A stretch of 24,706 bases of DNA from the IMG/VR virus record IMGVR_UViG_3300045988_008368, positions 1 to 24,706 of that record; one strand, given 5' to 3'. The position numbers were made by a program, and so were the translations under genes. The DNA comes from a virus. Positions 2-22,325 of this stretch are shown here, piece by piece (the stretch's first letter is position 1; every line of letters starts with the position of its first letter). Below the pieces are notes generated by a model that searched no databases, was not told where the DNA came from, and saw nothing but the letters and a program-made list of their open reading frames with translations.

Positions 2-1237
2 ATCAGGTTACCTGAAATAGTTGGAAGAGGATATAAGTCTTATTGGAACTTTAGAGGACGTTATGTTGCATGCAAAGGCTCACGTGCTTCTAAAAAATCG
101 AAAACAACCGCATTGCGCATCATATACAACATGATGAAATACGATCAGTCGAATACTCTTGTTGTTCGTAAAACTTATCGAACGCTTAAAGATTCGTGCT
201 TTACGGATTTAAAATGGGCCACAAAAAGGTTGGGAGTTGAGAACTTATGGGAATTCAAGTATTCACCTTTGGAAGCAACTTATCTTCCCACTGGACAGAA
301 GATTCTTTTTAGAGGACTTGATGATCCATTAAAAGTAACATCTATTACTGTTGAGTATGGATATTTGTGTTGGGCATGGCTTGAAGAAGCCTATGAGATA
401 ACAAGTGAAAAAGACTTTGATACCCTAGATGAGTCAATTCGTGGTGAGTTACCACCACATCTTTGGAAACAGTGGATGATTACATTCAACCCTTGGAACG
501 AACACCATTGGCTTAAAAAAAGATTCTTTGATGCAGAGAATGACCCTGACATATTAGCTATTACAACCAATTATAAGTGTAATGAATGGTTGGATGATGC
601 CGATTTAAGGTTGTTTGAAAATATGAAGAAGAACAATCCTAGACGATATCAGGTGGCCGGATTAGGAAATTGGGGTATTGTTGATGGATTGGTTTATGAG
701 AATTGGAAAGAGGAAGAATATACACTAGATCAAGTCGTTAACTGTGATTCTGTAGATGGTATTGACTTTGGGTATACGAATGACCCTGCTGCAGTTTTTA
801 TAGGTTTCATTGATACAGAACATAAAAAACTTTATGTTTGGGATGAGGTGTATAAAAAAGGCCTTTCCAACAAAAGGCTTTATGAGGAGATCGAAAGCTC
901 ACATTATCAAAAGAAGTCTTACACGGCAGACTGTGCAGAGCCTAAGTCGATTGATGAGCTAAGAGGGTATGGACTTCGTGTTGAGAAATCGCAAAAGGGA
1001 AAGGATTCCATTATGCATGGGATTCAATATATTCAAGATTTTGAAATTATCATTCATCCTAGATGTGTTAATTTCATAACCGAAATTGGTAACTATACAT
1101 GGGATGAAGATAGATTAGGAAACAAAATAAATCGTCCAATTGATGATTTTAACCACTTAATGGATGCAATGCGATATGCAGTTGAAAAATACACATTTGG
1201 ACGAGTTAAATTAAGGACATTTAAAGGAGGTATTTAA
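2..1237 (+). CDS. terL: Terminase large subunit (PBSX/XtmB-like), 5' end truncated by window edge
   Basis: The frame of ORF 113..1237 stays open back to nt 2. The upstream residues (...GRYVACKGSRASKKSKTTAL) look like the Walker A/P-loop of the terminase ATPase, so the TTG at 113 is not the true start. The C-terminal DDFNHLMDAMRYA is typical of the terminase nuclease domain. The gene sits immediately upstream of the portal gene, overlapping it by 1 nt. Confidence 0.9.
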   Translation: MRLPEIVGRGYKSYWNFRGRYVACKGSRASKKSKTTALRIIYNMMKYDQSNTLVVRKTYRTLKDSCFTDLKWATKRLGVENLWEFKYSPLEATYLPTGQKILFRGLDDPLKVTSITVEYGYLCWAWLEEAYEITSEKDFDTLDESIRGELPPHLWKQWMITFNPWNEHHWLKKRFFDAENDPDILAITTNYKCNEWLDDADLRLFENMKKNNPRRYQVAGLGNWGIVDGLVYENWKEEEYTLDQVVNCDSVDGIDFGYTNDPAAVFIGFIDTEHKKLYVWDEVYKKGLSNKRLYEEIESSHYQKKSYTADCAEPKSIDELRGYGLRVEKSQKGKDSIMHGIQYIQDFEIIIHPRCVNFITEIGNYTWDEDRLGNKINRPIDDFNHLMDAMRYAVEKYTFGRVKLRTFKGGI

Positions 1238-2595: not shown

Positions 2596-4009
2596 AACAT
2601 ATTGGCGAGATCGTGAACTGGAATGGAAAAAGAAACGTTTAAAAGATGAAAAGCAATATGCGGATGAAATACAAGAAATATATGCAAATATGATGGATTC
2701 GGTTGAAAAGGAAATCGAATCCTTTTTTACTCGCTATGCCAATAAAGAAAACATCACTATGGCAGAAGCCAAAAAGAGAGTTTCTAACATAGATATCCAA
2801 GCATATCAAAGAAAAGCTAAGAAGTATGTAAAGGAAAAGAACTTTTCAGATGAAGCCAATGAACAGATGAGACTTTATAACTTAGCAATGAAAGTCAACC
2901 GATTGGAGCTTTTAAAAGCGAACATTGGATTAGAACTTGTGGCAGGCCATGACGAATTGAAGTCGTATACTGGTGATAAACTGGAAGGAGCCTATTTAGA
3001 AGAACTCAAACGTAATGCTTCTATCTTAGGTGATACAGTGATTGACAATGCGAAGATGGCCAAAACAGTAGCAGATTCATCTTTTAAGAACGCAACCTTT
3101 TCAGAACGAATTTGGGTCAATCAAGAACAGTTAAAAAACAGTTTATCCAGTGTTCTATCTAATGCATTAATCCAAGGCAAGAATCCAAGAGAATTCATTC
3201 CTCAGATTAGAAAGAAATTTGATGTATCAAGATGCAATGCGGAAAGATTGTTGCGAACAGAAATTGCACGAGTTCAAACACAAGCACAGGCAGAATCTTA
3301 CGAAGCTAACGGAATAGATGAGTATGAATATATAGCCTGTAGCTTAAAAGATGTGTGCCCATTATGTAAAGAAATGGATGGCAAGGTCTTTAAACTTAAA
3401 GACATGGAAATAGGAGAAAATGCTCCACCTATGCATCCAAATTGTCATTGTGCGCTCGCACCTTATTCAGACCGCAAGGAGTATGAGAAGTGGCTAGATG
3501 GATTAGCAAACGGAGAGCATAGTTTAAGGTTTGACGAGTGGAAAGAATTAGAGGCTAAAACAAATAACTCTGGTGCATTAAATGGTGCTTGGAATAACGA
3601 AAATGACCCAAACTATAAAAAAAGAGACGAGATTGCAAAAGCACTGTACGCTCAAATTACAAATAGAAAAAAATCTTATGAAATAAAACAAGTAGCTAAA
3701 AATTCAGGTTTTACAGAGGAAGAGGTAAGTAATATATATGAACATGTGTTTATTCGCAAACATAAATTTAGAAGTGGAGAAATAAAAAAGTTTGACCCTG
3801 ACTATTATATGGCACATTCTTGGCTTAGACTTAGACAGGGAAAGGATATTCAAAAACACGATATAACAATGTTAAATCATGAATTAGCTGAAGAGAAAGA
3901 AATGCAAGATAGCCTCGATGTTATATATGAAGATAGTCATGAAAGAGTCCAAAAAATATATAATTATCAAAAAGAATTGCTTGAGTATCTTAAGGACCAT
4001 GATGTATAA
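2585..4009 (+). CDS. Head morphogenesis / minor capsid protein, MuF (SPP1 gp7) family, with about 180-aa C-terminal extension
   Basis: MuF signature region RTEIARVQTQAQAESY ... CPLCKEMDGKVF ... PPMHPNCHCALAPY (about aa 225-295). The residues beyond about nt 3470 are additional to a minimal gp7. Confidence 0.85.
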   Translation: MSSKTYWRDRELEWKKKRLKDEKQYADEIQEIYANMMDSVEKEIESFFTRYANKENITMAEAKKRVSNIDIQAYQRKAKKYVKEKNFSDEANEQMRLYNLAMKVNRLELLKANIGLELVAGHDELKSYTGDKLEGAYLEELKRNASILGDTVIDNAKMAKTVADSSFKNATFSERIWVNQEQLKNSLSSVLSNALIQGKNPREFIPQIRKKFDVSRCNAERLLRTEIARVQTQAQAESYEANGIDEYEYIACSLKDVCPLCKEMDGKVFKLKDMEIGENAPPMHPNCHCALAPYSDRKEYEKWLDGLANGEHSLRFDEWKELEAKTNNSGALNGAWNNENDPNYKKRDEIAKALYAQITNRKKSYEIKQVAKNSGFTEEEVSNIYEHVFIRKHKFRSGEIKKFDPDYYMAHSWLRLRQGKDIQKHDITMLNHELAEEKEMQDSLDVIYEDSHERVQKIYNYQKELLEYLKDHDV

Positions 4010-4033: not shown

Positions 4034-4252
4034 ATGATTACATTTGAGCTATTAGAATATAAAAATGGCAGATATGTGTATTTGTTTTCACCTGACATAG
4101 ACCCAAATGCAAAAGGAAAAGTTGCGATATACGATGATGGGAATCGCGAAGTGTTGGAACAGTCATCCGTTGATGTTAAGCAGTATTATGCAGGCCATGC
4201 TCTATGGGGTATTTCAGCAGGAGAAAAGGCAGGCACTGTTGCTTGGTGCTAA
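4034..4252 (+). CDS. Small hypothetical protein (72 aa), possible partner or immunity protein of the MuF C-terminal domain
   Basis: RBS GAAAGAGGTGG lies 5-6 nt upstream of the ATG. The ORF is tightly coupled to the MuF gene, 24 nt downstream, and is followed by an intrinsic terminator. I do not recognise a family. Confidence 0.6.
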   Translation: MITFELLEYKNGRYVYLFSPDIDPNAKGKVAIYDDGNREVLEQSSVDVKQYYAGHALWGISAGEKAGTVAWC

Positions 4253-4272
4253 GACATTTATTAAAAAAAATT

Positions 4273-4298
4273 AGGTCACTCAAAACGAGTGGCCTTTT
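4273..4298 (+). terminator. Rho-independent terminator-like hairpin
   Basis: Stem AGGTCACTC (4273..4281), loop AAAAC, stem GAGTGGCCT (4287..4295, one G.U pair), then TTT. It lies 20 nt after the stop of the 72-aa ORF. Confidence 0.6.
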
Positions 4299-4321
4299 AT
4301 TATGCAAGGGAGCGATATTAT

Positions 4322-4630
4322 GTGATAAGAATTAAGATTAAACAGACAAAACGTGATTGCTTGATTGAAGTACATGGCCATGCGTATTACGCTCCGATAG
4401 GAAAAGATATCGTCTGCAGCGCTATCTCAGTACTATTTGCGACATTGGCCAATTCAATTGACATGACATCCGATGCATTTTGCAGATACGATAGTCCTGA
4501 TGAGAATTACAAGACGTTGTATATCTCAGGACTAGACCTTGCTGGAGAATTAGCAATAAATTTCTTCAGAATTGGATGCAAAGGCACAGAAGAAGCATAT
4601 CCTGAATGTGTGGAACTGAGAGATGTGTAA
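4322..4630 (+). CDS. prp: Prp-like cysteine protease (ribosomal-processing cysteine protease / DUF464 family), phage-encoded
   Basis: EVHGHAYYAPIGKDIVCSAISVL matches the Prp/YsxB catalytic His ... (G)xDIVC(A/S)A(V/I)S motif. The track ORF starts at GTG 4289, inside the upstream terminator hairpin. GTG 4322 has a GGGAG RBS 9 nt upstream and gives the family-typical N-terminus MIRIKI..., so I use 4322. Confidence 0.8.
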   Translation: MIRIKIKQTKRDCLIEVHGHAYYAPIGKDIVCSAISVLFATLANSIDMTSDAFCRYDSPDENYKTLYISGLDLAGELAINFFRIGCKGTEEAYPECVELRDV

Positions 4631-4682
4631 TCACAAATATTTGGAGCGTGTCGAAAGACAATATTATGATCAATGGCTAGAG

Positions 4683-4719
4683 TGCATCGTTGAAGTACGA
4701 AATCAACGGTGCATTTTTT
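4683..4719 (+). terminator. Rho-independent terminator-like hairpin in the 246-nt gap between prp and scaffold
   Basis: Stem TGCATCGTTGA (4683..4693), 9-nt loop, stem TCAACGGTGCA (4703..4713, one G.U pair), followed by TTTTTT (4714..4719). Confidence 0.65.
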
Positions 4720-4876
4720 GTGGAAAAGCCAAGACTTATAAAGTCTACATATCCACATTACCAAACAAGACCAAGCATTCACGTCGTTAAACTGTATGGG
4801 TTATAGGCCAAGCATTTATGCCTTAAAAAGATATGGGAAATGACAAGCAAAGTCAGAAAAATAGGAGGAAATATAT

Positions 4877-5497
4877 ATGAAAAAATTCAATGACAGACTA
4901 CCTTTTTGCTTACAACTTTTTGCAGATGAAACTTCAGGTGAAAATGAGGGTACAGAAACAAAAAATACTCAATCAACTGAAGGACAAGACAACCAAGAAA
5001 AAAACAAAGCATCTGAAAAAAAGTATTCAGATGAAGATTTGAATGCGATTCTTGACAAAAGGTTTGCACGTTGGAAAGCGGATCAAGAAAAAGAAAAAGC
5101 AGAAGCTAAGCGCTTAGCAGAAATGAATGCTCAAGAACGAGCAGAAGCAGAACGTGATAAAGTAAAAAAAGAGTTGGATGAATTGAAAGCAAAAAATGCG
5201 ATTGCAGAAATGACAAATGAAGCACGCAAAATGTGCACAGAGCACAATATTAACGTTGGTGATGACCTTTTATCTGTTCTAGTTAATCAAGATGCAGATA
5301 AAACAAAGAAAGCGGTTGATGCATTCGTTAAGATGTTTGAATCTGAAGTAGAAAAAGCAGTTAAAGAAAAACTGAAAGGCAACGGTCCTAAACGTGGAGG
5401 TTCAAACAAAGGGGTAACTCGTGAATCAATCTTGAATATCACTGATCCGATGGAAAGACAACGCATGATTGCGGAAAACATGGATTTATTCCAGTAA
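4877..5497 (+). CDS. Capsid scaffolding protein
   Basis: Strong RBS AGGAGG. 206 aa, highly charged and coiled-coil-like (KADQEKEKAEAKRLAEMNAQERAEAERDKVKKELDELKAK). It lies immediately upstream of the major capsid gene. The N-terminal leader ends in LQLFA. Confidence 0.85.
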   Translation: MKKFNDRLPFCLQLFADETSGENEGTETKNTQSTEGQDNQEKNKASEKKYSDEDLNAILDKRFARWKADQEKEKAEAKRLAEMNAQERAEAERDKVKKELDELKAKNAIAEMTNEARKMCTEHNINVGDDLLSVLVNQDADKTKKAVDAFVKMFESEVEKAVKEKLKGNGPKRGGSNKGVTRESILNITDPMERQRMIAENMDLFQ

Positions 5498-5518: not shown

Positions 5519-6724
5519 ATGAAAAAAATTTATAAAGGTATGAACTTGCAAATGTTTGCAGCACCTACAGGATTAACAGGAACAGGCAACATCCAAGTTA
5601 GAGCACACGAAATTGATTTTGTTACTAGTTTTGGAAAGAACATCCAAGCTTTATTGGACGTATTAGGAATTATTCGTCCAATTCGTAAAGCAAACGGTTC
5701 TGTTTTGAAAACAAAGAAAGTAACAGGAACATTACAGGACGGACATGTAGCAGAAGGCGAATCAATTCCATTAAGCGAATACAAAGTTGAAGAAGAAGTG
5801 TTCGATACAATTCAAATCGAGAAATTCCGTAAAGCCGTTCCTATTGAAGCAATTGCAGAGAAAGGATATGAAGCTGCAGTATCTGATACTGACGAACAGT
5901 TCCGTATTGATTTGCAAGATAACATCACTGATCGCTTATATGCTCAATTAAATTCAGGTAGCTTAGTAGGACATGAAGCGACTTGGCAAATGGCTATCGC
6001 AATGGCAATCGGTAATGTTAAACACAAATTCCAACAAATGAAACGAAATACTACTGGTATTGTTGTATTCGTAAATACTTTGGATGCTTACCGCTATTTA
6101 GGAGAAGCTAATGTATCTATGCAGACTGCATTCGGTTTAACATACATTAAGAACTTCTTAGGAGCAGATATTGTATTTTTAACAGACCGAGTTGCAGAAA
6201 AAACAGTAGTGGCTACTCCAATGAACAACATCATTGCATATTATGTAGATCCAAGCGATTCTGAATTTGTTAAAGCAGGACTTTCATATACTACTGACAG
6301 TACTACTGGCTTCTTAGGATTCCATGTAGAAGGGAACTATGATCGTGCTATTTCTGATATGTTCGCTATCATGGGATTACGTTTAATGTGTGAATACCAA
6401 GATGCAATTGCACACTTTGCAGTAGGTGGTTCTGATACTCAGACATTGCGTAATTTAACATTAACGGCTTCTAAAGGTGAAGAAACAGGAACTACAAAAG
6501 TAGCAGTTGACGAACAGTTGCAATCTATGAATAACAAATTCAAATTCAAGGTAGGAGCTTCTGAAGAAACAGTGGCATATGGTACAGATGTAAAATCTTG
6601 GAAGAATTTCGAAGAAGGAGCAGATATCAAAGCAGCAGAATCTAATCATTGTACAGTAGTTGAATGTGACAGAAACTACAAAGCAGTATCAAAAGGCGAT
6701 GTAGTTGTTGATTTAAAGGCGTAG
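5519..6724 (+). CDS. Major capsid protein with appended C-terminal Ig-like/decoration module
   Basis: RBS AAGGAG. 401 aa, following the scaffold gene. N-terminal leader MKKIYKGMNLQMFA. The C-terminal ~95 aa (KFKFKVGASEETVAYGTDVKSWKNFEEGADIKAAESNHCTVVECDRNYKAVSKGDVVV) resemble the beta-rich surface modules appended to capsid and tail proteins of Firmicute phages. Confidence 0.85.
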   Translation: MKKIYKGMNLQMFAAPTGLTGTGNIQVRAHEIDFVTSFGKNIQALLDVLGIIRPIRKANGSVLKTKKVTGTLQDGHVAEGESIPLSEYKVEEEVFDTIQIEKFRKAVPIEAIAEKGYEAAVSDTDEQFRIDLQDNITDRLYAQLNSGSLVGHEATWQMAIAMAIGNVKHKFQQMKRNTTGIVVFVNTLDAYRYLGEANVSMQTAFGLTYIKNFLGADIVFLTDRVAEKTVVATPMNNIIAYYVDPSDSEFVKAGLSYTTDSTTGFLGFHVEGNYDRAISDMFAIMGLRLMCEYQDAIAHFAVGGSDTQTLRNLTLTASKGEETGTTKVAVDEQLQSMNNKFKFKVGASEETVAYGTDVKSWKNFEEGADIKAAESNHCTVVECDRNYKAVSKGDVVVDLKA

Positions 6725-15045: not shown

Positions 15046-17412
15046 TTGACTGCATTGGTAAAGGATGATGGTGTTGATATTACATCTAAGTATTCAATTA
15101 TTTGGTACAAAGACGATGTGCAAATATCAACAAATCAAACTATCACAATTAGTGCATCAGACCTATCAGAAAAGGCTGTATATCGATTTAAAGCAATGAG
15201 TGGTGAAATACTTAAAGCAAGTGCAGAAGTCACTGTAATGCGATTGCAAGATGGTCAGAATGGAACAAGTGCATATGTACATATTGCCTATGCCAACAGT
15301 TCAGATGGTCGTGTTGATTTCAGTTTGACAGATTCAAATCGTAAATTTATTGGTCAGTATTCTGATAGTAAGCAATATGGTTCAGAAGACCCAACTAAAT
15401 ACCGATGGAGTGCAATTAAGGGCGAAGATGGTCAGTCATTTGTGAGTGCCGAAGAGCAGTTCTATTATTCGACTTCTCAAACCGAATTAATTGGTGGTGA
15501 GTGGTTTGTTGGTAATGTGGTTTATCAAAGTGATAAATTTCTTTGGAAAAGATGGAAATGTACGTATGCTAATCCTAGTGAAATCAAGTATACGAAAGCT
15601 ATTTTTGACAACACTTGGAATGAAATTGATGCGAAAATCAGTGAGATTCACACTCAAGTGTCTCAAGCAAATGTGCAATCAAAAGAAGCAGTTGAAAAAG
15701 CAACACAAGCTCAGACAGATGCAAGTAAAGCAAATGAATTGGCAAATACCGCTAACACTCAATCAAGCGAGGCTAAGCAACTAGCACAAGATGCGAATAC
15801 TAGCACTGGTAAAGCACAAGAACAGATTGATGCGATTAAAGGAGATATCACTGATTCAAAGCAACAGATTCAAGATGCAGTTGATAAGGCAAACACAAAC
15901 GCAAATGAAATCGGTACAATAAAAGAAACGTACGCTACAAAAGTTGATTTAACTACTGAATCAAAAACAATTCATGCAGATGTTACAACAGAAATTGAAA
16001 AGAAAGTCGGTGAATTATCGACTACTGTATCAGAAACTTATGCTTCTAAGAGTGATTTAACAAGCATTGAAGGTAGTTTAAATACCAAGATTAAACAAAA
16101 TGCCGATTCAATCACAACTCAAGCAAGTTCAATTGAAAAGTTGCAATCAGATACAACTAAAGCTCAGAAAGATATTATTGATGCAACAAAGAAAGCAACG
16201 GATGCTCAAGCTCAAGCGGATAAAGCGTTAGGTAATGCTCAAAGTGCTCAAACTCTAGCAGATGAAGCAAAGAAAAAAGCAGATAGTGCTCAAACTAACT
16301 TAGACAATGCTAATAAAGAATTGGCAGATGCAAAAGCTAATCTAGAATCAGTGACTGGTAGAGTTGATGCGACTGAGAGTGAAATTACAAAAGCTCAAAC
16401 ACGTTTAACAAACGCAGAATCTGCAGTACAGAAAGCTCAGTCTGATGCAACTAAGGCTCAAGGCAACGCAACTACGGCAATCAATAATGCAAAGGCAGCT
16501 CAAGGAGCGGCGGATGATGCAAAGCAGAAAGCAGAACAAGCTCAGAAAGATTTAGCAGATTTAACGAATAAAGTAACTTCAAATACAACGGCAATTGAGC
16601 AGAATGCAAAAGCTATTAAATTACAAGCTACTTCGGTAACTGAAATAAAAGGGGTTGCCAATACTGCAAACAGTAATGCATCAAGCGCATTGAATAAAGC
16701 TAATAGCTTAACTGATAGAGCCGATAAAGGTGAGTTTGATGGACGAGGTGTTGCAAGTACAACTGTTGAATATCAAGCATCTACATCTGGAACTATTGTG
16801 CCTACTGGAACGTGGTCTGCTACGATTCCTACTGTTGCTCAAGGTTCATATTTATGGACTAAGACTACAACTAACTATACAAGCGGAAATCCTACAATTG
16901 GATATTCTGTAGCTCGTATGGGTGTAAACGGTGCTAAGGGTGACAAAGGCGAAATCGGACAAACAGGACCTCAAGGGCCACAAGGAGTTAAGGGCGAGAC
17001 AGGTTCACAGGGTCCTCAAGGACTAAAAGGAGATACTGGTCCTAAAGGTGCTGATGGTAAATCACCAACTGTGTCTGTTAGCAAAAGTGGAAACACTACA
17101 ACTATTACTGTAAATAACCCTGATGGTACAAAAACAAGTCAAACTGTAAAAGATGGAACTAATGGAACTCCTGGTAAAGATGGAGCTACAGGAAAAACTA
17201 CATATTTTCATGTAAAGTATTCAAATGATGGTGGTAAAACATTTACTTCTAATTCAGGAGAGACTGTAGGGGATTATATTGGTACTTATACAGATTTTGT
17301 TGAGGCCGACTCTAATTCTGTTTCAAGTTATACATGGGCCAAAATAAAAGGAGCTCAAGGAGATAGAGGAGCCACTGGTGCCACAGGAGAACGTGGACCG
17401 CAAGGACCTTAG
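15046..17412 (+). CDS. Tail fibre body (continuation of Tal): coiled-coil rod, collagen-like repeats; terminated by an in-frame TAG
   Basis: 788 aa from a TTG with no RBS, and the frame is open back to 14974. It contains a long Ala/Gln/Lys/Thr-rich coiled coil (about 15650..16720), two of the three copies of a fibre module (YY.S.S.T...G.W......KYLW.R; the third copy is in 17416..18159), and Gly-X-Y repeats. The stop TAG 17410..17412 occupies a Y position in a Gly-X-Y repeat. Confidence 0.8.
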   Translation: MTALVKDDGVDITSKYSIIWYKDDVQISTNQTITISASDLSEKAVYRFKAMSGEILKASAEVTVMRLQDGQNGTSAYVHIAYANSSDGRVDFSLTDSNRKFIGQYSDSKQYGSEDPTKYRWSAIKGEDGQSFVSAEEQFYYSTSQTELIGGEWFVGNVVYQSDKFLWKRWKCTYANPSEIKYTKAIFDNTWNEIDAKISEIHTQVSQANVQSKEAVEKATQAQTDASKANELANTANTQSSEAKQLAQDANTSTGKAQEQIDAIKGDITDSKQQIQDAVDKANTNANEIGTIKETYATKVDLTTESKTIHADVTTEIEKKVGELSTTVSETYASKSDLTSIEGSLNTKIKQNADSITTQASSIEKLQSDTTKAQKDIIDATKKATDAQAQADKALGNAQSAQTLADEAKKKADSAQTNLDNANKELADAKANLESVTGRVDATESEITKAQTRLTNAESAVQKAQSDATKAQGNATTAINNAKAAQGAADDAKQKAEQAQKDLADLTNKVTSNTTAIEQNAKAIKLQATSVTEIKGVANTANSNASSALNKANSLTDRADKGEFDGRGVASTTVEYQASTSGTIVPTGTWSATIPTVAQGSYLWTKTTTNYTSGNPTIGYSVARMGVNGAKGDKGEIGQTGPQGPQGVKGETGSQGPQGLKGDTGPKGADGKSPTVSVSKSGNTTTITVNNPDGTKTSQTVKDGTNGTPGKDGATGKTTYFHVKYSNDGGKTFTSNSGETVGDYIGTYTDFVEADSNSVSSYTWAKIKGAQGDRGATGATGERGPQGP
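16921..17064 (+). repeat. Collagen-like Gly-X-Y repeat 1 (16 triplets)
   Basis: GVN GAK GDK GEI GQT GPQ GPQ GVK GET GSQ GPQ GLK GDT GPK GAD GKS, read directly from the sequence. Confidence 0.9.
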
Positions 17413-17475
17413 GGATTGAAAGGTGATAAAGGAGCAACAGGGGCTCAAGGCCCTACTGGTGCGACTGGTACTGGT
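17350..17475 (+). repeat. Collagen-like Gly-X-Y repeat 2 (14 triplets) containing an in-frame TAG
   Basis: GAQ GDR GAT GAT GER GPQ GP* GLK GDK GAT GAQ GPT GAT GTG. The Gly-X-Y register is preserved across TAG 17410..17412. Confidence 0.9.
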
Positions 17476-18159
17476 GTAGCTAGTATGACACAACAGTATT
17501 ACATGAGCGACTCGAAAACTACTCAAACCGGTGGCTCATGGGTTGAATCAATGCCTACGTGGTCAAATGGTAAATATTTATGGACTAGGTATAAAGTGGT
17601 TTATAAGAATCCTGCTTCAACAGTTTATACCACTCCTGTATGTAATAGTTCATGGGAAGCAGTCAATGAAGAACGTACAGAACGACAATCTGCCATTGAG
17701 ACAAAAGCGAATGAAATTACTGCGAAAGTTAGCGAAATTTACGTATCAAATTCGGCTTTGAATCATTATAAAGAAGAAGTATCTACTCAGTTTAGCCAAA
17801 CTAAGAGCGATTTTACGTGGTCAATTAATCGAAGCGTGACCGATGCTAAAAATGAAATGAATGGTCAAATCAGCAGTGTGAATGGTAGATTGGATGGTTT
17901 AAAACAAACCACAGACAACGTAAACAGTTATATGTCTTTTGATAACGATGCATTGACTTTAGGTAAATCAGACAGTGCATTTAAAACTAAAATCACAAAC
18001 CAAGAATGGTCGATTCAAAAGAATGGTGCAAAGGTAACATATATAAACGACCAAACAATGTACATTACAGATGGTCAATTTACGCAGTCTTTAAAAGTAG
18101 GTGCATTTGGTTTTGTACCAAGAGCTAATGGCTCATTGGACTTCAAGAAAGTAGGGTGA
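17416..18159 (+). CDS. C-terminal part of the split tail fibre (downstream of the in-frame TAG)
   Basis: The track start is a TTG one codon after the TAG, with no RBS. The sequence continues the collagen repeat and then a third copy of the fibre module (YYMSDSKTTQTGGSWVESMPTWSNGKYLWTRYKVVY). It ends GAFGFVPRANGSLDFKKVG, typical of fibre C-termini of this class. Confidence 0.75.
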   Translation: MKGDKGATGAQGPTGATGTGVASMTQQYYMSDSKTTQTGGSWVESMPTWSNGKYLWTRYKVVYKNPASTVYTTPVCNSSWEAVNEERTERQSAIETKANEITAKVSEIYVSNSALNHYKEEVSTQFSQTKSDFTWSINRSVTDAKNEMNGQISSVNGRLDGLKQTTDNVNSYMSFDNDALTLGKSDSAFKTKITNQEWSIQKNGAKVTYINDQTMYITDGQFTQSLKVGAFGFVPRANGSLDFKKVG

Positions 18160-18163
18160 TTAA

Positions 18164-20053
18164 ATGGCAGAATTTAGTGGTGGAATACAAATTGGTAGTG
18201 GTCAGTGGGATAAATACTCGTTAATATTACGAATCAATGAAATATCTTATTCTGTTGAAAACAACACATCATATGTAGAGTGGTGGGTTGGTATTCGATC
18301 TAATACGCAGTACCATACACACAATGGAATTCCAGAAACATTTAAAGTATCCGTGAATGGTACTCAAGTGTTAAACCAAAGCTTTACACCTAATGTGCCG
18401 GTAAATACGCTTGTTGGTGTAAAAAGTGGAACTGTAACTATTTCACATGATGCAGATGGTTCAAAAACAATTTCGGCAAGTGCATCTTTCAGCGGAAGTA
18501 ACTCTGGATATTATGCACCTATTACTGGTTCTTGCAGTGGTACTGTTAAATTGACAACTATTCCAAGAGCTTCAAGTATATCTATTGATAGCCCTAGCAT
18601 TGAATGTGGTAAAACTATAAATATTAATGGCTCGAGTGCTTCAAAAAACTTTACACATAAAATCTACGCAACATGGAATGGTAAAACAAGTGAATTAACA
18701 ACGATAAGTGGGACATTAACACCCACTTTTTCTTATACGATTCCTACCGCATGGGAAAAGGACTTACCTAATTCGATAAGCGGAATTGCTACATTTACAT
18801 TAGAAACATTCAGTGGTTCAACTTCGGTTGGCTCAAAATCAGTAAATGCAACAATTAAAGTAAGAAGTGGAGTCGTTCCTAGTGTTGGAACGGTCTCGAT
18901 ATCTGATACAAATTCAATCTGCGTAGGAATAGGTCAACATGTTCAAAGTCAATCAAGATTAAAGTTCTCAATTGCTACAAGTGGTAGTCAAGGCTCAACT
19001 GTTACATCTGTATCAACTAAATTTGAAGGACAAACATATAATGATAGTTCATTTACTACAGGTACTGTACAGGGAAGTGGCAAGTTGTCGTACACAATCA
19101 CAGTTACAGATTCACGTGGTCGAACTTCATCTAAGAGTGGTTCGGTCACTGTATCTGCATACAGTCCCCCAAGCTTAACGAATGTAACTGCAAAACGTGC
19201 TAACTCAAGTTATGCGATTGATGAGGCAAGTGGTACATATGCTTTATTACACTTCAAAGTTGGATTTACTAGTTTAAGCAATAAGAATGTAACATCATTC
19301 TATATTCAATATCGAGCAAGTGGTGCTAGTTCATGGACGAAAATAAATTCGTGGGATAACAACTACACGCTTGAACAAGATTACAAAGCAGGTAATTTAT
19401 TCACATCTGCAACAAGTTCCTATGAGGTTGCGTTCGGCGTTAAGGATAAGTTCATGAGTGATTATTCATGGCAAATATTTACTGTAGCTCCTGCTTACTC
19501 ATTGATAAACTTTGGTAAAGATGGAAGATCATTGACGCTCTTTGGTCAAGACGCTAATCAAAAAGATACATTAACTGTACTAGGTGATATTGTAGCTCCT
19601 ATTTTCTTAAATAAGATATTCCCAGTTGGCGCAGTCTATATCACATACGATAAAAAGAACCCTGGAACATTCCTAGGCGGGACATGGGAACAGTTTGGAC
19701 AAGGTAGAACATTAGTCGGTGAAGGCACTGGAAATGATGGTAGTACAAGTATGTCTTTTACTACTGATTCGAGCGGTGGTGAATATAAGCACAAACTGCT
19801 AGAAACTGAAATGCCGAAACATCATCATAGTGTGAGATTGATGGTTAAAGGATATGCTGGTTGGGAGGAACGAACTATTGACAGTTTTGGAGTAATGATT
19901 GATAGAAGCACAAAAAACTATGTCACTCCAAATGAAAAGGTTAATGCCACAGATGCTTCTGCGTTTGTTTATACTGGTTGGGCAGGAGATAATGTGCATC
20001 ATAATAACGTTCAACCCTACATAACCACGTTCTTTTGGCGAAGAACGCAATGA
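18164..20053 (+). CDS. Receptor-binding tail fibre / baseplate protein: DUF859-like N-terminal region plus C-terminal phage tail-collar domain (currently expressed tip = cassette 0)
   Basis: 629 aa. The N-terminus MAEFSGGIQIGSGQWDKYSLILRINEISYSVENNTSYVEWWV resembles the siphovirus DUF859-type structural proteins. The C-terminus IFPVGAVYITYDKKNPGTFLGGTWEQFGQGRTLVGEG ... GGEYKHKLLETEMPKHHH ... HHNNVQPYITTFFWRR matches the phage tail collar domain pattern (PF07484-like). Confidence 0.8.
   Translation: MAEFSGGIQIGSGQWDKYSLILRINEISYSVENNTSYVEWWVGIRSNTQYHTHNGIPETFKVSVNGTQVLNQSFTPNVPVNTLVGVKSGTVTISHDADGSKTISASASFSGSNSGYYAPITGSCSGTVKLTTIPRASSISIDSPSIECGKTININGSSASKNFTHKIYATWNGKTSELTTISGTLTPTFSYTIPTAWEKDLPNSISGIATFTLETFSGSTSVGSKSVNATIKVRSGVVPSVGTVSISDTNSICVGIGQHVQSQSRLKFSIATSGSQGSTVTSVSTKFEGQTYNDSSFTTGTVQGSGKLSYTITVTDSRGRTSSKSGSVTVSAYSPPSLTNVTAKRANSSYAIDEASGTYALLHFKVGFTSLSNKNVTSFYIQYRASGASSWTKINSWDNNYTLEQDYKAGNLFTSATSSYEVAFGVKDKFMSDYSWQIFTVAPAYSLINFGKDGRSLTLFGQDANQKDTLTVLGDIVAPIFLNKIFPVGAVYITYDKKNPGTFLGGTWEQFGQGRTLVGEGTGNDGSTSMSFTTDSSGGEYKHKLLETEMPKHHHSVRLMVKGYAGWEERTIDSFGVMIDRSTKNYVTPNEKVNATDASAFVYTGWAGDNVHHNNVQPYITTFFWRRTQ
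19749..19785 (+). repeat. Crossover site S0 (core GTATGTCTTTTAC 19749..19761) inside the expressed fibre gene
   Basis: GTATGTCTTTTACTACTGATTCGAGCGGTGGTGAATA. The reverse complement is found exactly at 20842..20878. The ATG of the core is codon 530 (Met) of the fibre. Confidence 0.85.
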
Positions 20054-20302
20054 TTATTTAATTCGTTTCCAAAAGTAAGTTACAATGGATGGCTGTAAAT
20101 TATTATGTGCTTGGTTTCCTCCTGTGTTTGTTGTATTACTCATATAGCCACCATTAAACCATGAGTTATTTGATGCGGATTGAATATTTCCTTTTCCGTC
20201 AATCCAAGCGCAGTCATTAAATTTATGCGCATGATTAGGCATTTCTTGTATTGTTAGTTGGTGCTTGTATTCTCCGTATGTTTTTCCGGATGTAAATGAC
20301 AT
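20054..20302 (-). CDS. Silent alternative fibre-tip cassette A (82 aa, collar-domain C-terminal half)
   Basis: MSFTSGKTYGEYKHQLTIQEMPNHAH ... GGNQAHNNLQPSIVTYFWKRIK is paralogous to the last 100 aa of the fibre. There is no Shine-Dalgarno sequence upstream. Its stop codon abuts the fibre stop codon. Confidence 0.75.
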   Translation of the reverse strand: MSFTSGKTYGEYKHQLTIQEMPNHAHKFNDCAWIDGKGNIQSASNNSWFNGGYMSNTTNTGGNQAHNNLQPSIVTYFWKRIK

Positions 20303-20304
20303 AC
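20292..20304 (-). repeat. Crossover site SA (core GTATGTCATTTAC on minus strand) at the start of cassette A
   Basis: The forward strand reads GTAAATGACATAC. The ATG of cassette A is 20302..20300. Confidence 0.75.
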
Positions 20305-20322
20305 TTTTAATCGGTTATATAG

Positions 20323-20335
20323 GTATGTCATTTAC
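20323..20335 (+). repeat. Crossover site SB (core GTATGTCATTTAC) at the start of cassette B
   Basis: It is head-to-head with SA, separated by 18 nt (20305..20322). The ATG of cassette B is at 20325. Confidence 0.75.
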
Positions 20336-20597
20336 AACCAATTCTGAAGGTGGTGAATACTATCATACGTTATCATATTCTGAAATGCCTGCTCACGCAC
20401 ACGAAGTTGGTATATGGGGTACGTCTGGCGTTTTAACAACTACTCCGTGGGAATTTATGGCCATTAATGGTTCGCATCATTCTGATGGTCAAAGTCACAA
20501 TGTAAATAGTATTCATACAAATGGATCTGGTGGCAATATTCCACACAATAACGTGCAACCATATTTAGTTGTTTTCTTTTGGCGAATGGTAAAATAG
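20325..20597 (+). CDS. Silent alternative fibre-tip cassette B (90 aa)
   Basis: MSFTTNSEGGEYYHTLSYSEMPAHAH ... GGNIPHNNVQPYLVVFFWRMVK. The track ORF (20265..) adds 20 spurious residues by reading antisense through the start of cassette A. There is no RBS. Confidence 0.75.
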   Translation: MSFTTNSEGGEYYHTLSYSEMPAHAHEVGIWGTSGVLTTTPWEFMAINGSHHSDGQSHNVNSIHTNGSGGNIPHNNVQPYLVVFFWRMVK

Positions 20598-20876
20598 CTA
20601 CTTGATACGTCTCCAAAAGTAAGTTACCACGTAAGGTTGTACATTATCGTGTGGTTTGTTTCCGCCTGTTGGCCATGTTTGACCGTACCAATAATAATTA
20701 GTTCTATTAGCACGTTCAGTGGCTCTCGTAAAAGGTACATCACTATATGGATTACCATATAATGCAGTGGTTACATCAGTTTGTTGGTCTAAGATCCAAT
20801 GCGTATGGCTCGGTAGCTCTTCACGTGTAAGTTTATGATAGTATTCACCACCGCTCGAATCAGTAGTAAAAGACAT
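20598..20876 (-). CDS. Silent alternative fibre-tip cassette C (92 aa)
   Basis: MSFTTDSSGGEYYHKLTREELPSHTH ... GGNKPHDNVQPYVVTYFWRRIK. The first 11.7 codons are nucleotide-identical to the expressed tip. Its stop codon abuts the cassette B stop. There is no RBS. Confidence 0.75.
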   Translation of the reverse strand: MSFTTDSSGGEYYHKLTREELPSHTHWILDQQTDVTTALYGNPYSDVPFTRATERANRTNYYWYGQTWPTGGNKPHDNVQPYVVTYFWRRIK

Positions 20877-20878
20877 AC
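20842..20878 (-). repeat. Crossover site SC (core GTATGTCTTTTAC on minus strand, 20866..20878) at the start of cassette C
   Basis: Perfect 37-nt reverse complement of S0. It lies 2 nt from the stop codon of the recombinase gene. Confidence 0.85.
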
Positions 20879-20880
20879 AT

Positions 20881-21774
20881 TTACTTGTAGTAATCGCAAA
20901 GTAATTCTACACATTTTCTTTTTAATTCCATTTGAGGATGAACGTAGATATTCATAGTGATCGAAACATTGGAATGGCCAAGTAATTCACTAAGTGATTT
21001 ATAATCACAACCACATTCAATGCATCTTGTTGCAAATGTGTGTCTTAATGCATGGAATTTGAGGTGTGGAAGTTCAAGGTCTTTAAGTAGTCGATTGTAG
21101 TAAAGCCTGTATTTATTAGGCTCTATCGGTTTATCTCGATTCGTTAATACATAGTTATCTGCATCACCTTGAAGCAATATAGCATAATGCATTATCCAAG
21201 CGTTAAGAGGAATCATACGAGTGCTAGAACGTGATTTAGGCGGTGTTATTGAAAGATGACTACCGTCTTCTTTTGTGTATGTACGTATCATGGTTTTATC
21301 TATTTTTAACAATTTGGTTTGAATGTTTATATCAGACCATTTCAAAGCGCATAGTTCACCTATGCGTATTCCAGTGTGGATGCATAACAGGATTCCAAAG
21401 TTTTTGTAATTAATCTCAGATTGGAGGTGATTAATCAATGAGATTTGATTTTCTTTTTCAAAAATTTCTACCGCCGTAGGAGGATGGTATGGAAGTTGAA
21501 TATCGATTTTAAATGGAAGTGTGAACTTCAGAATTTGAATAATGTCTTTGGCATATTTAAAAGAAATGCCACCTTTTCCATCTTTACGACCATTTTCAAG
21601 TTTTTGAAGAATAAACTCTTGCAGAATATCGTTATTCAATTCTTCAATTTTATATGTGCCAAGTGTTGGCAATACGTGATTATGAATCACATTACAATAA
21701 TTTGTGTAAGTGCTGTATTTTAGATAGATTTTCTTTTCTTTTAACCAAGAATGTAATTTGTCAGAATATAGCAT
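20881..21774 (-). CDS. Tyrosine site-specific recombinase (small XerC/D- or Rci-like); candidate invertase of the fibre-tip segment
   Basis: 297 aa with a GAGGT RBS. The catalytic pattern is present: HTGIRIGELCAL (Arg I), HALRHTFATR (H-x-x-R), LLGHSNVSITMNIYVH (His/Tyr). It is the only long minus-strand gene in an otherwise + strand late region, and it sits 4 nt from cassette C rather than in a lysogeny module. Confidence 0.85.
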   Translation of the reverse strand: MLYSDKLHSWLKEKKIYLKYSTYTNYCNVIHNHVLPTLGTYKIEELNNDILQEFILQKLENGRKDGKGGISFKYAKDIIQILKFTLPFKIDIQLPYHPPTAVEIFEKENQISLINHLQSEINYKNFGILLCIHTGIRIGELCALKWSDINIQTKLLKIDKTMIRTYTKEDGSHLSITPPKSRSSTRMIPLNAWIMHYAILLQGDADNYVLTNRDKPIEPNKYRLYYNRLLKDLELPHLKFHALRHTFATRCIECGCDYKSLSELLGHSNVSITMNIYVHPQMELKRKCVELLCDYYK

Positions 21775-21817
21775 TTTTGTTTACCTCGCTTTTTTTATAT
21801 TAATAGGAGGATTTTAA

Positions 21818-22066
21818 ATGGTTAAAACACATGAAATCAATTTAAATACTAAATTATGGAATTTTTTCCAAGAACACGATTTTATTATTCTTGATTTGAC
21901 TGATGAGCAAATCAATGAACAAGATTATGTGTTATTTAAACAAGTATCGTTAGACGAAGGAAAAGAAATGGATACTGGTTTATTTAGAATGACACAGATT
22001 CGCAGCATCACTACTAACGATGGATTCAAAGAAGGCTATGTGATGTTAAATGTAACTAAATTATAG
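21818..22066 (+). CDS. Small protein, DUF3850 / ASCH(PUA)-like
   Basis: RBS AGGAGG. KTHEINLNTKLWNFF ... DYVLFKQ ... TGLFRMTQIRSI ... GFKEGYVMLNV resembles the HELK ... GD.L.L.E ... TGR ... I ... GL.EGYV.L pattern of DUF3850. Confidence 0.45.
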   Translation: MVKTHEINLNTKLWNFFQEHDFIILDLTDEQINEQDYVLFKQVSLDEGKEMDTGLFRMTQIRSITTNDGFKEGYVMLNVTKL

Positions 22067-22076
22067 GAGGAAAGTT

Positions 22077-22325
22077 ATGGAGTTAAATGAAACAGTAGAG
22101 TTGATGAACTCTGCAGATTACAAAGACAGATTCAAAGGCGAGTATTTTCAAGTAAAGATTCGTCACGACAAATTGAAAGCTATGTGCGAAAAATGGGATG
22201 AAGGAAAGTTGAATTTCAAACCGACTTGTCCAAGAGAAATCTATGATCTTCAATTAGATGCCATGAAAAGATATATGGACATCCTTGTTATTCGTACAAA
22301 GATTGAAAATGTTGAGTTGATCTAG
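22077..22325 (+). CDS. Small conserved helical phage protein (function unknown)
   Basis: RBS AGGAGG. 82 aa. DRFKGEYFQVKIRHDKLKAMCEKWDEGKLNFKPTCPREIYDLQLDAMKRYMDIL resembles a widespread small phage protein family that I cannot name with certainty. Confidence 0.6.
   Translation: MELNETVELMNSADYKDRFKGEYFQVKIRHDKLKAMCEKWDEGKLNFKPTCPREIYDLQLDAMKRYMDILVIRTKIENVELI

Follow-up and report, generated by a model that had tools for sequence, protein, structure and literature searches.

A probable tail-fibre shufflon adjoining a tyrosine recombinase gene in phages related to IMGVR_UViG_3300045988_008368

Gene organisation of the locus

The IMG/VR virus record IMGVR_UViG_3300045988_008368, analysed here over positions 1 to 24,706 (the window), contains a tail-fibre gene followed by an array of short coding cassettes, each of which starts within a copy of the same short repeat, and by a gene encoding a tyrosine recombinase of 297 amino acids (aa). 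We consider it probable that recombination takes place at these repeats, as part of a tail-fibre shufflon of the phage, and that this shufflon is run by the adjacent recombinase. The features of the locus are listed below by position and strand, with distances in nucleotides (nt); the cassettes are numbered 0 and A to C (c0, cA, cB and cC), and the arms and centres given for the four sites are those of the site model proposed further on.

18164..19750, plus strand: constant part of the tail fibre, 529 codons, fused in frame to the cassette that follows S0
19742..19762, plus strand: site S0, the expression site (left arm AGTACAA 19742..19748, centre GTATGTC 19749..19755, right arm TTTTACT 19756..19762); exact core 19749..19761, W = T
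19751..20053, plus strand: cassette 0, 100 codons, the tip expressed in the window (translation; Gp10_C)
20054..20302, minus strand: cassette A, silent, 82 codons (translation; Gp10_C, 9.1e-10), stop-to-stop with cassette 0
20291..20311, minus strand: site SA (left arm ATTAAAA 20311..20305, centre GTATGTC 20304..20298, right arm ATTTACA 20297..20291); exact core 20292..20304, W = A
20305..20322, no strand: spacer between SA and SB, 18 nt, made up of two 7-nt left arms with 4 nt between them
20316..20336, plus strand: site SB (left arm TATATAG 20316..20322, centre GTATGTC 20323..20329, right arm ATTTACA 20330..20336); exact core 20323..20335, W = A
20325..20597, plus strand: cassette B, silent, 90 codons (translation; Gp10_C, 4.7e-08)
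20598..20876, minus strand: cassette C, silent, 92 codons (translation; Gp10_C, 2.9e-08), stop-to-stop with cassette B (TAG/CTA)
20865..20885, minus strand: site SC, recombinase-proximal (AGTAAAT + GTATGTC + TTTTACT), the only complete two-armed site of the window; exact core 20866..20878, W = T
20881..21774, minus strand: tyrosine recombinase, 297 aa, presumed invertase (Pfam), adjoining SC

The open reading frame (ORF) that spans the constant part and cassette 0 (18164..20053, 629 aa) matches DUF859 (8.5e-44) and, at its C-terminal end, Gp10_C (2.8e-22) in Pfam, as well as tail-protein families of PHROGs. Residues 480-543 of the tail fibre can be aligned with the T4 gp10 C-terminal domain (PDB 2fkk), and the similarity to this domain includes the terminal NxQPYITxYxW motif. 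All four cassettes correspond to Gp10_C from approximately profile position 54 onward; they have in common the residues M-S-F-T, GEY.H.L..E.P.H.H and N.QP…FW and are divergent between these. Among relatives of this phage the same constant part is joined to other tips in called genes, and cassette 0 is found in other assemblies as a silent 100-aa ORF that adjoins the recombinase or spacers.

The recombinase matches Phage_int_SAM_3 (3.8e-11, residues 7-55) and Phage_integrase PF00589 (1.6e-28, residues 112-282) in Pfam, and its Pfam domains are therefore a SAM-like core-binding and a catalytic domain only, no search aimed at an arm-binding domain having been made. Its best solved relative is the Int protein of Tn1549 (6emy, 1.6e-16), to which the catalytic motifs TGIRIGE, HALRHTF, GHSN and NIYVH can be aligned, and the hallmarks of the tyrosine recombinase superfamily (Arg, His-x-x-Arg, His/Trp and Tyr) are present. 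PHROGs labels the protein 'integrase', and in NCBIfam the recombinase reached the cut-off of no model and the tail fibre had no match. A tblastn search with the recombinase against phages and plasmids retrieved generic integrases only, with at most 40 % identity, which did not aid the family assignment. In the phage database the best matches of the recombinase come from uncultured gut phages and do not exceed 38 % identity, and the 15 best plasmid matches listed are generic integrases or unannotated, none being labelled as a shufflon recombinase.

Distribution of the core motif

The first-pass annotation of this DNA, made from the nucleotide sequence without database searches, had described four copies of a 13-nt core as putative crossover sites. 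A pattern scan of the window recovered the four exact GTATGTCWTTTAC copies at the coordinates and on the strands that had been given for them, where 0.00 are expected by chance (100 dinucleotide-preserving shuffles); two more matches with 2 mismatches (6853 and 14146) are at chance level. The ATG within every core starts an intact ORF, of 100, 82, 90 and 92 codons respectively, and the bases preceding the GT read caa, aaa, tag and aat, as originally described. SA and SB do lie head to head across an 18-nt spacer (20305..20322).

The perfect inverted repeat reported between S0 and SC is exactly 37 base pairs (bp) in length. It comprises the 13-nt core and the 24 nt TACTGATTCGAGCGGTGGTGAATA, after which the two copies diverge (T vs C); the bases at position -1 also differ, if the first base of the core is numbered position 1. 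With mismatches allowed the repeat reaches 56 nt at 89 % identity. This outer repeat is incidental and no feature of the system, because cassettes 0 and C have their first 24 nt in common and relatives hold other cassettes at the outer positions.

The comparative analysis covers at least 124 related loci (designated by L numbers), with 381 sites in total. A protein-guided scan of IMG/VR contributed 52 of the loci, exact-protein look-ups 20 and a genome scan 5 that were usable, and a further 46, which constitute an independent set, came from an exact-pattern scan of metagenome contigs with an expression-site junction. Allowing up to 3 mismatches per site gave far too many off-target matches; the scan used at most 1 mismatch together with a cassette-context filter. 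When 78 related loci (663,475 bases) were examined for exact matches to GTATG[TA]C[ACT]TTTAC, 238/238 were located at cassette starts and 0 elsewhere. The motif is locus-specific in that no exact core lies outside cassette starts in these 663 kb of related DNA. The ambiguous base of the core, W at position 8, is indeed A or T in the window, but family-wide this position is A, C or T (H) and never G. A variant right arm is present in 20 of the 381 sites, namely TATAC (Phe to Tyr), TTTGC (Thr to Ala) and single instances of TTTAG and TCTAC; examples are L009 5495, L086 381, L007 3707 and L018 5335. The TATAC form always accompanies one and the same cassette type.

Natural isomers of the array

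The proposal that the four copies are crossover sites is borne out by natural inversion and deletion isomers, the junctions of which lie at the cores. In the same-phage set the flanks differ from the window by 0-4 mismatches in 3.0-3.4 kb per side, an identity of at least 99.9 %. Within this set L059 equals an in-silico SB×SC inversion of the window (the cB/cC module) except for 8 nt, and L055, L056 and L057 contain cassettes C (expressed) and B only. A sister group, consisting of L001, L054, L060 and L063, has one constant-region allele with 87 identical mismatches. L001 and L054 have the arrangement of the window, L063 represents the whole S0×SC inversion, and in L060 cassette B is joined to the constant part and cassette C is silent, as in the product of an S0×SB deletion. 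Such a deletion product had been predicted by the first-pass annotation and is thus found in L060 when it is compared with its sister L054. Junctions of natural isomers map to S0, the expression site.

All four fusions of the constant part are represented by called genes, with products of 629, 611, 619 and 621 aa (529 + 100, 82, 90 and 92). Tip A is fused in the 611-aa gene of L066 and, as a variant that is 86 % identical, in L068; tip B in the 619-aa gene of L060 and in a 620-aa gene of L058, which has a diverged constant part; and tip C in the 621-aa gene of L053, L055-L057 and L063. Two scenarios had been drawn up from the W polymorphism, and it is the second, with exchange to one side of W and all four tips reachable, that agrees with the data, since all four fusions are called and W remains linked to its cassette.

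The loci L063-L072 have a cassette 0 that is identical in 292/292 nt, though their constant region is only 80-97 % and their recombinase gene 92-99 % identical to the window at the DNA level, and cassettes evidently move between phage backgrounds. In most of L063-L072 this cassette is located at locus coordinates 3512-3803. The convergent partner of cassette 0 in L067 is cC-like instead of cA, an arrangement that is beyond the reach of core exchange alone.

Crossover interval and the role of position 8

Position 8 follows the cassette rather than the flank to which the cassette is joined. It is T at 28/29 cassette starts of the c0/cC type, which occur with 9 distinct left flanks, A at 13/13 cA starts (5 distinct left flanks), A at 10/10 cB starts (3 distinct left flanks) and C at 8/8 cB' starts (5 distinct left flanks). 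In the first set of loci position 8 agreed in 79 % of comparisons between sites with the same right and different left flanks, in 30 % where the left flank was the same and the right different, and in 33 % where both were different (the baseline); the corresponding values in the independent 46-contig metagenome set were 63.5 %, 45 % and 33 %. Because left flanks differ up to position -1 and position 8 follows the cassette, the junction can be placed within positions 1-7 (GTATGTC), at the borders of which the strands would be cut.

Positions 1-7 are uniform among the sites of each locus in 103/103 loci with at least two sites (68 + 35), whereas position 8 differs within 84 of the same 103 loci (56 + 28). 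The only variable position of the centre is position 6, which is T or A, and every locus is uniform in this respect. The A form of position 6 is found in at least 3 separate lineages, and L026 (A) and L023 (T) have recombinases that share 97.7 % identity. One locus, L008, was considered as a case of mixed position 6 and rejected, the odd site being an off-target match outside the shufflon. In the overlap region of tyrosine recombinases such as Cre, FLP and Xer a base is changeable only in concert across partner sites and is not read by the enzyme, and the pattern at position 6 is as expected of such a region. In 23/57 loci none of the sites that are inverted relative to the expression site carries its position-8 base, which also argues that identity at W is not needed. 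The variable base is the first base of the cassette-side arm, and the choice of partner is unrestricted by it.

The sites were first drawn differently, with a dyad GTA-N7-TAC around an exchanged centre TGTCWTT; W would then lie in the overlap and would have to match between partners or end in heteroduplex. GTA and TAC are invariant and mutually inverted, as this model requires, and both the cassette 0 of L068, whose foreign position-8 base matches that of the partner site, and the imperfect family-wide linkage of position 8 to the cassette would be in keeping with it. However, W is kept with near-identical cassettes across at least 5 types of junction between sites of different W, although segregation of a heteroduplex would randomise W. 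The 23 expression sites without a matched inverted partner, and the variation within loci of position 8 but of none of positions 1-7, also speak against this dyad. We therefore regard it as quite improbable, the data placing W outside the exchanged region.

Proposed structure of the site

The dyad that fits the sequences is AGTAAAW + GTATGTC + WTTTACT, complete at SC and degenerate at the other sites. In the profile of unique sites, A G T A a A w at positions -7..-1 mirrors w T T T A C t at positions 8..14 around the 7-bp centre. The 47 distinct left flanks score 4.55/7 against the mirrored arm, compared with 2.41 for random 7-mers of the same DNA, and 0/20,000 resamplings reach 4.55; the score is still 4.24 when constant-region and recombinase-proximal flanks are left out. 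Neither C at position -1 nor G at the mirrored position 8 occurs. The mirror of AGTAAAW and WTTTACT, together with these exclusions at -1 and 8, centres the dyad on position 4 and not on position 7, as the GTA-N7-TAC model would have it. Among the left arms of the window, that of SC (AGTAAAT) matches AGTAAAW in 7/7 positions, those of S0 (AGTACAA) and SA (ATTAAAA) in 6/7 each, and that of SB (TATATAG), the weakest, in 3/7.

The site would accordingly measure about 21 bp and consist of a degenerate left arm (aGTAaAw), a 7-bp non-palindromic centre (GTATGTC) and a conserved right arm (hTTTACt). Positions 1-7 and 9-13 are nearly invariant. The first-pass annotation had likened it to the asymmetric sfx sites of R64 with their 7-nt centre. 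This holds insofar as the centre and the cassette-side arm are conserved and the outer arm is variable; the outer arm is, however, not simply unconserved but a weak inverted copy of the cassette-side arm. At SC the left arm contains the stop codon of the recombinase gene (20881..20883), and relatives retain an arm of the GTAAAT/GTCAAT type here even if the C-terminus and stop codon of their recombinase are shifted.

The centre and right arm are coding, being read as xGT ATG TCN TTT ACN (M-S-F-T) in the same phase in every cassette. Constraint at the level of the DNA is nevertheless apparent, as positions 1-2 remain GT in non-coding context and TTT is never replaced by TTC, though the synonymous position 8 varies freely.

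Family-wide layout and hosts

The number of sites per locus ranges from 2 to 8, and the outermost pair is always mutually inverted, while the inner sites occur in convergent-pair, head-to-head and tandem layouts. The cores of head-to-head sites are 18 nt apart in 39/45 pairs, 17 nt in 5 and 19 nt in 1. In 134/134 convergent pairs the cassettes meet at their stop codons, the gap being -8, -4, 0 or +1 nt (20053/20054 and 20597/20598 in the window), and in tandem cassettes the distance from the stop to the next core is 0, 5 or 7 nt in 73/76. The shufflon consists essentially of cassettes and sites, with no other DNA.

Of the 366 cassettes that can be read to a stop (66-108 aa), 361 are intact, and together they encode 244 distinct proteins. 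This degree of intactness indicates that the silent copies are kept functional, as expected with occasional expression of each. A diversity-generating retroelement was considered and rejected, there being no reverse transcriptase among the gene calls at related loci.

A megablast search with 19400..21800 gave no match in 50,697 GenBank phage records, and hence no cultured relative in that set. Relatives of the recombinase are encoded on contigs binned to Holdemanella (93 %), to Floccifex (75 %) and to Erysipelotrichaceae metagenome-assembled genomes (MAGs), and a further relative (61 %) is present in a 597-kb scaffold of the isolate 'Firmicutes bacterium M10-2'. Judging by these sequence relationships, the phage is probably temperate and its host probably belongs to the Erysipelotrichaceae (Holdemanella).

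Proposed mechanism

In the mechanism that we propose, strand exchange would take place within GTATGTC and, as the coding phase is the same at every site, would fuse the 529-codon constant part in frame to a new T4-gp10-C-type tip of 82-100 codons. Exchange between inverted sites would flip the intervening DNA, and exchange between direct sites would delete it, or duplicate it if the two sites were in two genome copies. Starting from the window, S0×SA would bring tip A to expression and S0×SC tip C; tip B would be expressed after SB×SC followed by S0×(far site), and S0×SB would lead to the loss of cassettes 0 and A. W would not be exchanged and would need no match in the partner, and position 6 would have to match. 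The adjacent recombinase would presumably catalyse these events, and the alternative tips would be expected to alter host range.

A number of observations weigh against this account. The L059 isomer falls short of a clean reciprocal product: at its recombinase-proximal site cassette B has the c0/cC-type sequence at positions 8-26, including the base at position 8 and the first 13 nt, and all 8 differences from the in-silico inversion (L059 3893-3940) fall between the core and a 19-nt block common to B and C. This tract, in the shared GGTGGTGAATACTATCATA, resembles the outcome of gene conversion or of a homologous exchange superimposed on the inversion. In L068 a cassette 0 that is identical in 292/292 nt carries C at position 8, like the partner site. 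Family-wide, position 8 is not fully linked to the cassette (64-79 % instead of 100 %), and in the independent set pairs with the same left flank somewhat exceed the baseline (45 % vs 33 %), with C overrepresented at the expression site; strands may therefore at times be exchanged to the right of this position. The sequences compared are mutually related, so that the statistics overstate their independence, and the evidence consists throughout of comparisons of assemblies. The two-cassette forms, which equal deletion products, are found alongside four-cassette forms in the same strains (L060 vs L054; L055-57 vs the window), and they could instead be ancestral. In scaffolds L065 (2308-4628) and L069 (2925-4628) a whole convergent pair (c0/cA or cB/cC) is present twice, and these duplications may reflect either unequal site-specific exchange between genome copies or the misassembly of mixed isomers.

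The locus might in addition be integron-like as well as a switch, a suggestion that we offer tentatively and hold to be rather doubtful. Exchange between direct sites would in that case excise cassette circles, and exchange between sites on co-resident phage genomes would move or duplicate modules. Several findings fit this suggestion without showing the mechanism: cassette 0 is identical in 292/292 nt in phages with a constant region of 80-93 % identity, close relatives have 2, 4, 6 and 8 sites, 244 distinct cassette proteins stand behind one invariant core, and modules are duplicated on some scaffolds. If it is true, the population of gut Erysipelotrichaceae phages shares one pool of tail tips via a universal 21-bp site.

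Alternative explanations

General homologous recombination by the host or the phage, acting on the short inverted repeats and on similar cassette ends, would leave the tyrosine recombinase as a prophage integrase or as a protein unrelated to the rearrangements. It would account for the conversion-like tract of L059, which runs from the core to the 19-nt block shared by B and C, and for the occasional re-partnering of convergent pairs (c0 with a cC-like cassette in L067), which is impossible by core exchange, and the 'integrase' label of PHROGs would agree with it. Apart from L059, however, the junctions lie in a 7-bp interval of a 13-bp identity, and an identity of 13 bp is too short for efficient homologous exchange. 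A recombinase also adjoins the array throughout the family: cassettes or core sites lie directly past its stop codon in every fetched locus with DNA beyond that stop, and the stop is at, or a few bases from, the last site across recombinases that are 61 % to 100 % identical. The conservation at DNA level (non-coding GT, TTT never TTC, the mirrored left arm) points to recognition by a protein, and the recombinase has in Pfam the SAM-like core-binding and catalytic domains only, no search having been aimed at a lambda-type arm-binding domain. We judge this explanation to be quite improbable.

It is extremely unlikely that the repeats are conserved only as the start peptide M-S-F-T of paralogues in a static array of duplicated gene fragments, for although the core is coding and the cassettes have further N-terminal residues in common (GGEY.H.L..EMP.H.H), such an array is already contradicted by inversion and deletion isomers in phages that are otherwise at least 99.9 % identical, and it does not agree with the invariance of the two bases preceding the ATG even where they are non-coding, with the avoidance of the synonymous TTC while the synonymous position 8 varies, or with silent fragments that lack a start context and yet are intact in 361/366 cases.

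Comparison with known systems

For a site-specific tail-fibre shufflon of the kind proposed, the closest known system would seem to be the Rin shufflon, on the basis of architecture and not of a sequence comparison of the recombinases. Rin is found in prophages of Bifidobacterium breve and Bifidobacterium longum and comprises a constant gene, cassettes and an armless tyrosine invertase; the gene contains an asymmetric repeat of 11 bp, which also precedes every cassette (Mavrich et al. 2018, PMC6109161). A Rin-type system was later reported in Eggerthella lenta prophages (PMC8778435). In Rin, as in the locus described here, a phage tyrosine recombinase is located at one end and a constant N-terminal receptor-binding or tail part at the other, several C-terminal cassettes (~95-100 aa in Rin) lie between them, a short asymmetric repeat is present before each cassette and in the expressed gene, and inversion isomers have their junctions at the repeats. 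The tandem cassettes of Rin, in which the next site lies directly past the stop codon, resemble those of many relatives of the window. In contrast, the hosts of Rin belong to the Actinomycetota and those of the present phages probably to the Bacillota (Erysipelotrichaceae); the 11-bp site of Rin, TTCCCTAACCC, is unrelated to GTATGTCHTTTAC; the tip fold is of the TP901-1 receptor-binding protein type in Rin and of the T4 gp10-C type here; and convergent cassette pairs and head-to-head sites set the window apart from Rin. No Bifidobacterium phage is among the 30 best phage-database matches of the recombinase, the best of which is 38 % identical.

The R64/IncI shufflon (Rci, sfx, pilV tips) likewise employs multiple inversion by a tyrosine recombinase to swap the C-terminal ends of an adhesin. 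Its sfx site has a 12 + 7 + 12 structure in which the right arm is conserved, the left arm varies and the core between them is 7 bp long (PMC11852207). The site proposed here shares the 7-bp centre with one conserved and one variable arm, the arms being shorter in our 7 + 7 + 7 model. Rci carries an extra C-terminal domain, and wild-type Rci has been reported to make inversions only (PMC11852207). Unlike Rci, the recombinase of 297 aa has ~15 residues left after the end of its catalytic match at residue 282, which leaves no room for the C-terminal domain of Rci, and deletion-type variants seem to occur at the loci analysed here. The target also differs, being a pilus tip in R64 and a phage tail fibre here.

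The invertases Gin, Cin and Min depend on an enhancer and on Fis. Inversion of tail-fibre genes is the function of Gin (Mu), Cin (P1) and Min (p15B), of which Min is a multiple-inversion system (PMC6109161), and in these cases, as here, a phage swaps the C-terminal part of its tail fibre by site-specific inversion. They are, however, serine invertases, whereas the only recombinase at the present locus is of the PF00589 tyrosine type and the sites lie inside coding sequence. Type I restriction hsdS loci and Bacteroides Tsr-type invertases, which we compared by description only, resemble the locus in that an Xer-like tyrosine recombinase adjoins inverted partial genes and generates alternative specificity domains (PMC9881135), but these systems are cellular and not viral and involve another target protein and other repeats.

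In the searchable literature there is no description of a Bacillota phage version of this system, an absence that is no proof in itself, and a search of the literature for inversions in Holdemanella phages found nothing relevant. Phage tail-fibre shufflons with a tyrosine invertase are described in that literature only from Actinomycetota prophages, and the loci reported here would extend them to probable Erysipelotrichaceae (Holdemanella) phages. Such phages recur in human-gut metagenome assemblies. The scale of at least 124 loci and 244 distinct tips suggests how large a reservoir of host-recognition variants may stand behind one switch. The natural isomers, which are taken from public data, point to a 7-bp exchange region, a tolerated polymorphism in the first base of the arm and a centre base that needs a match. 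They also bear on the directionality of armless tyrosine invertases, an open question raised for Rin, as deletion-type products seem to occur here. A small invertase of 297 aa with a site of ~21 bp could, moreover, serve for synthetic shuffling of the Rci type. The value of the system lies in an unusually clear record of natural isomers and in the size of the cassette pool.

Expression signals and neighbouring genes

Independent expression of the silent cassettes was considered and rejected, since no ribosome-binding site is visible and their orientations alternate. The ATG of the proximal silent cassette is located 4 nt past the recombinase stop on the same strand (window 20874-20885). Cassette C is co-oriented with the recombinase gene, and translation of a recombinase-proximal cassette from the transcript of that gene is conceivable, though no ribosome-binding site is evident. 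A promoter and terminator scan of 19500..22100 gave fewer promoter-like matches than in shuffles and 0 terminators.

A different inversion layout is observed in L080 (4212-6598), from the uncultured Bacteroidales MAG RUG720, where a 38 %-identical recombinase lies between inverted duplications of ~700 bp (4212-4936 vs 5875-6598), the recombinase being inside the invertible segment.

Downstream of the recombinase are holin and amidase genes. A small ORF past the recombinase (22077-22325), for which gene calls of identical relatives give a Sequestin domain (PF21825), lies between the shufflon and these lysis genes. Upstream of the tail fibre a large collagen-like tail protein is split by an in-frame TAG at 17410-17412 into ORFs 15046..17412 and 17416..18159, the stop falling inside a Gly-X-Y repeat (GPQGP*GLKGDKG). 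Either a sequencing error or, if the prophage is defective, a nonsense mutation could explain this TAG; it is replaced by CAG (Gln) in L055-L057, which are at least 99.9 % identical, and the gene encodes 1,300-1,450 aa in relatives.

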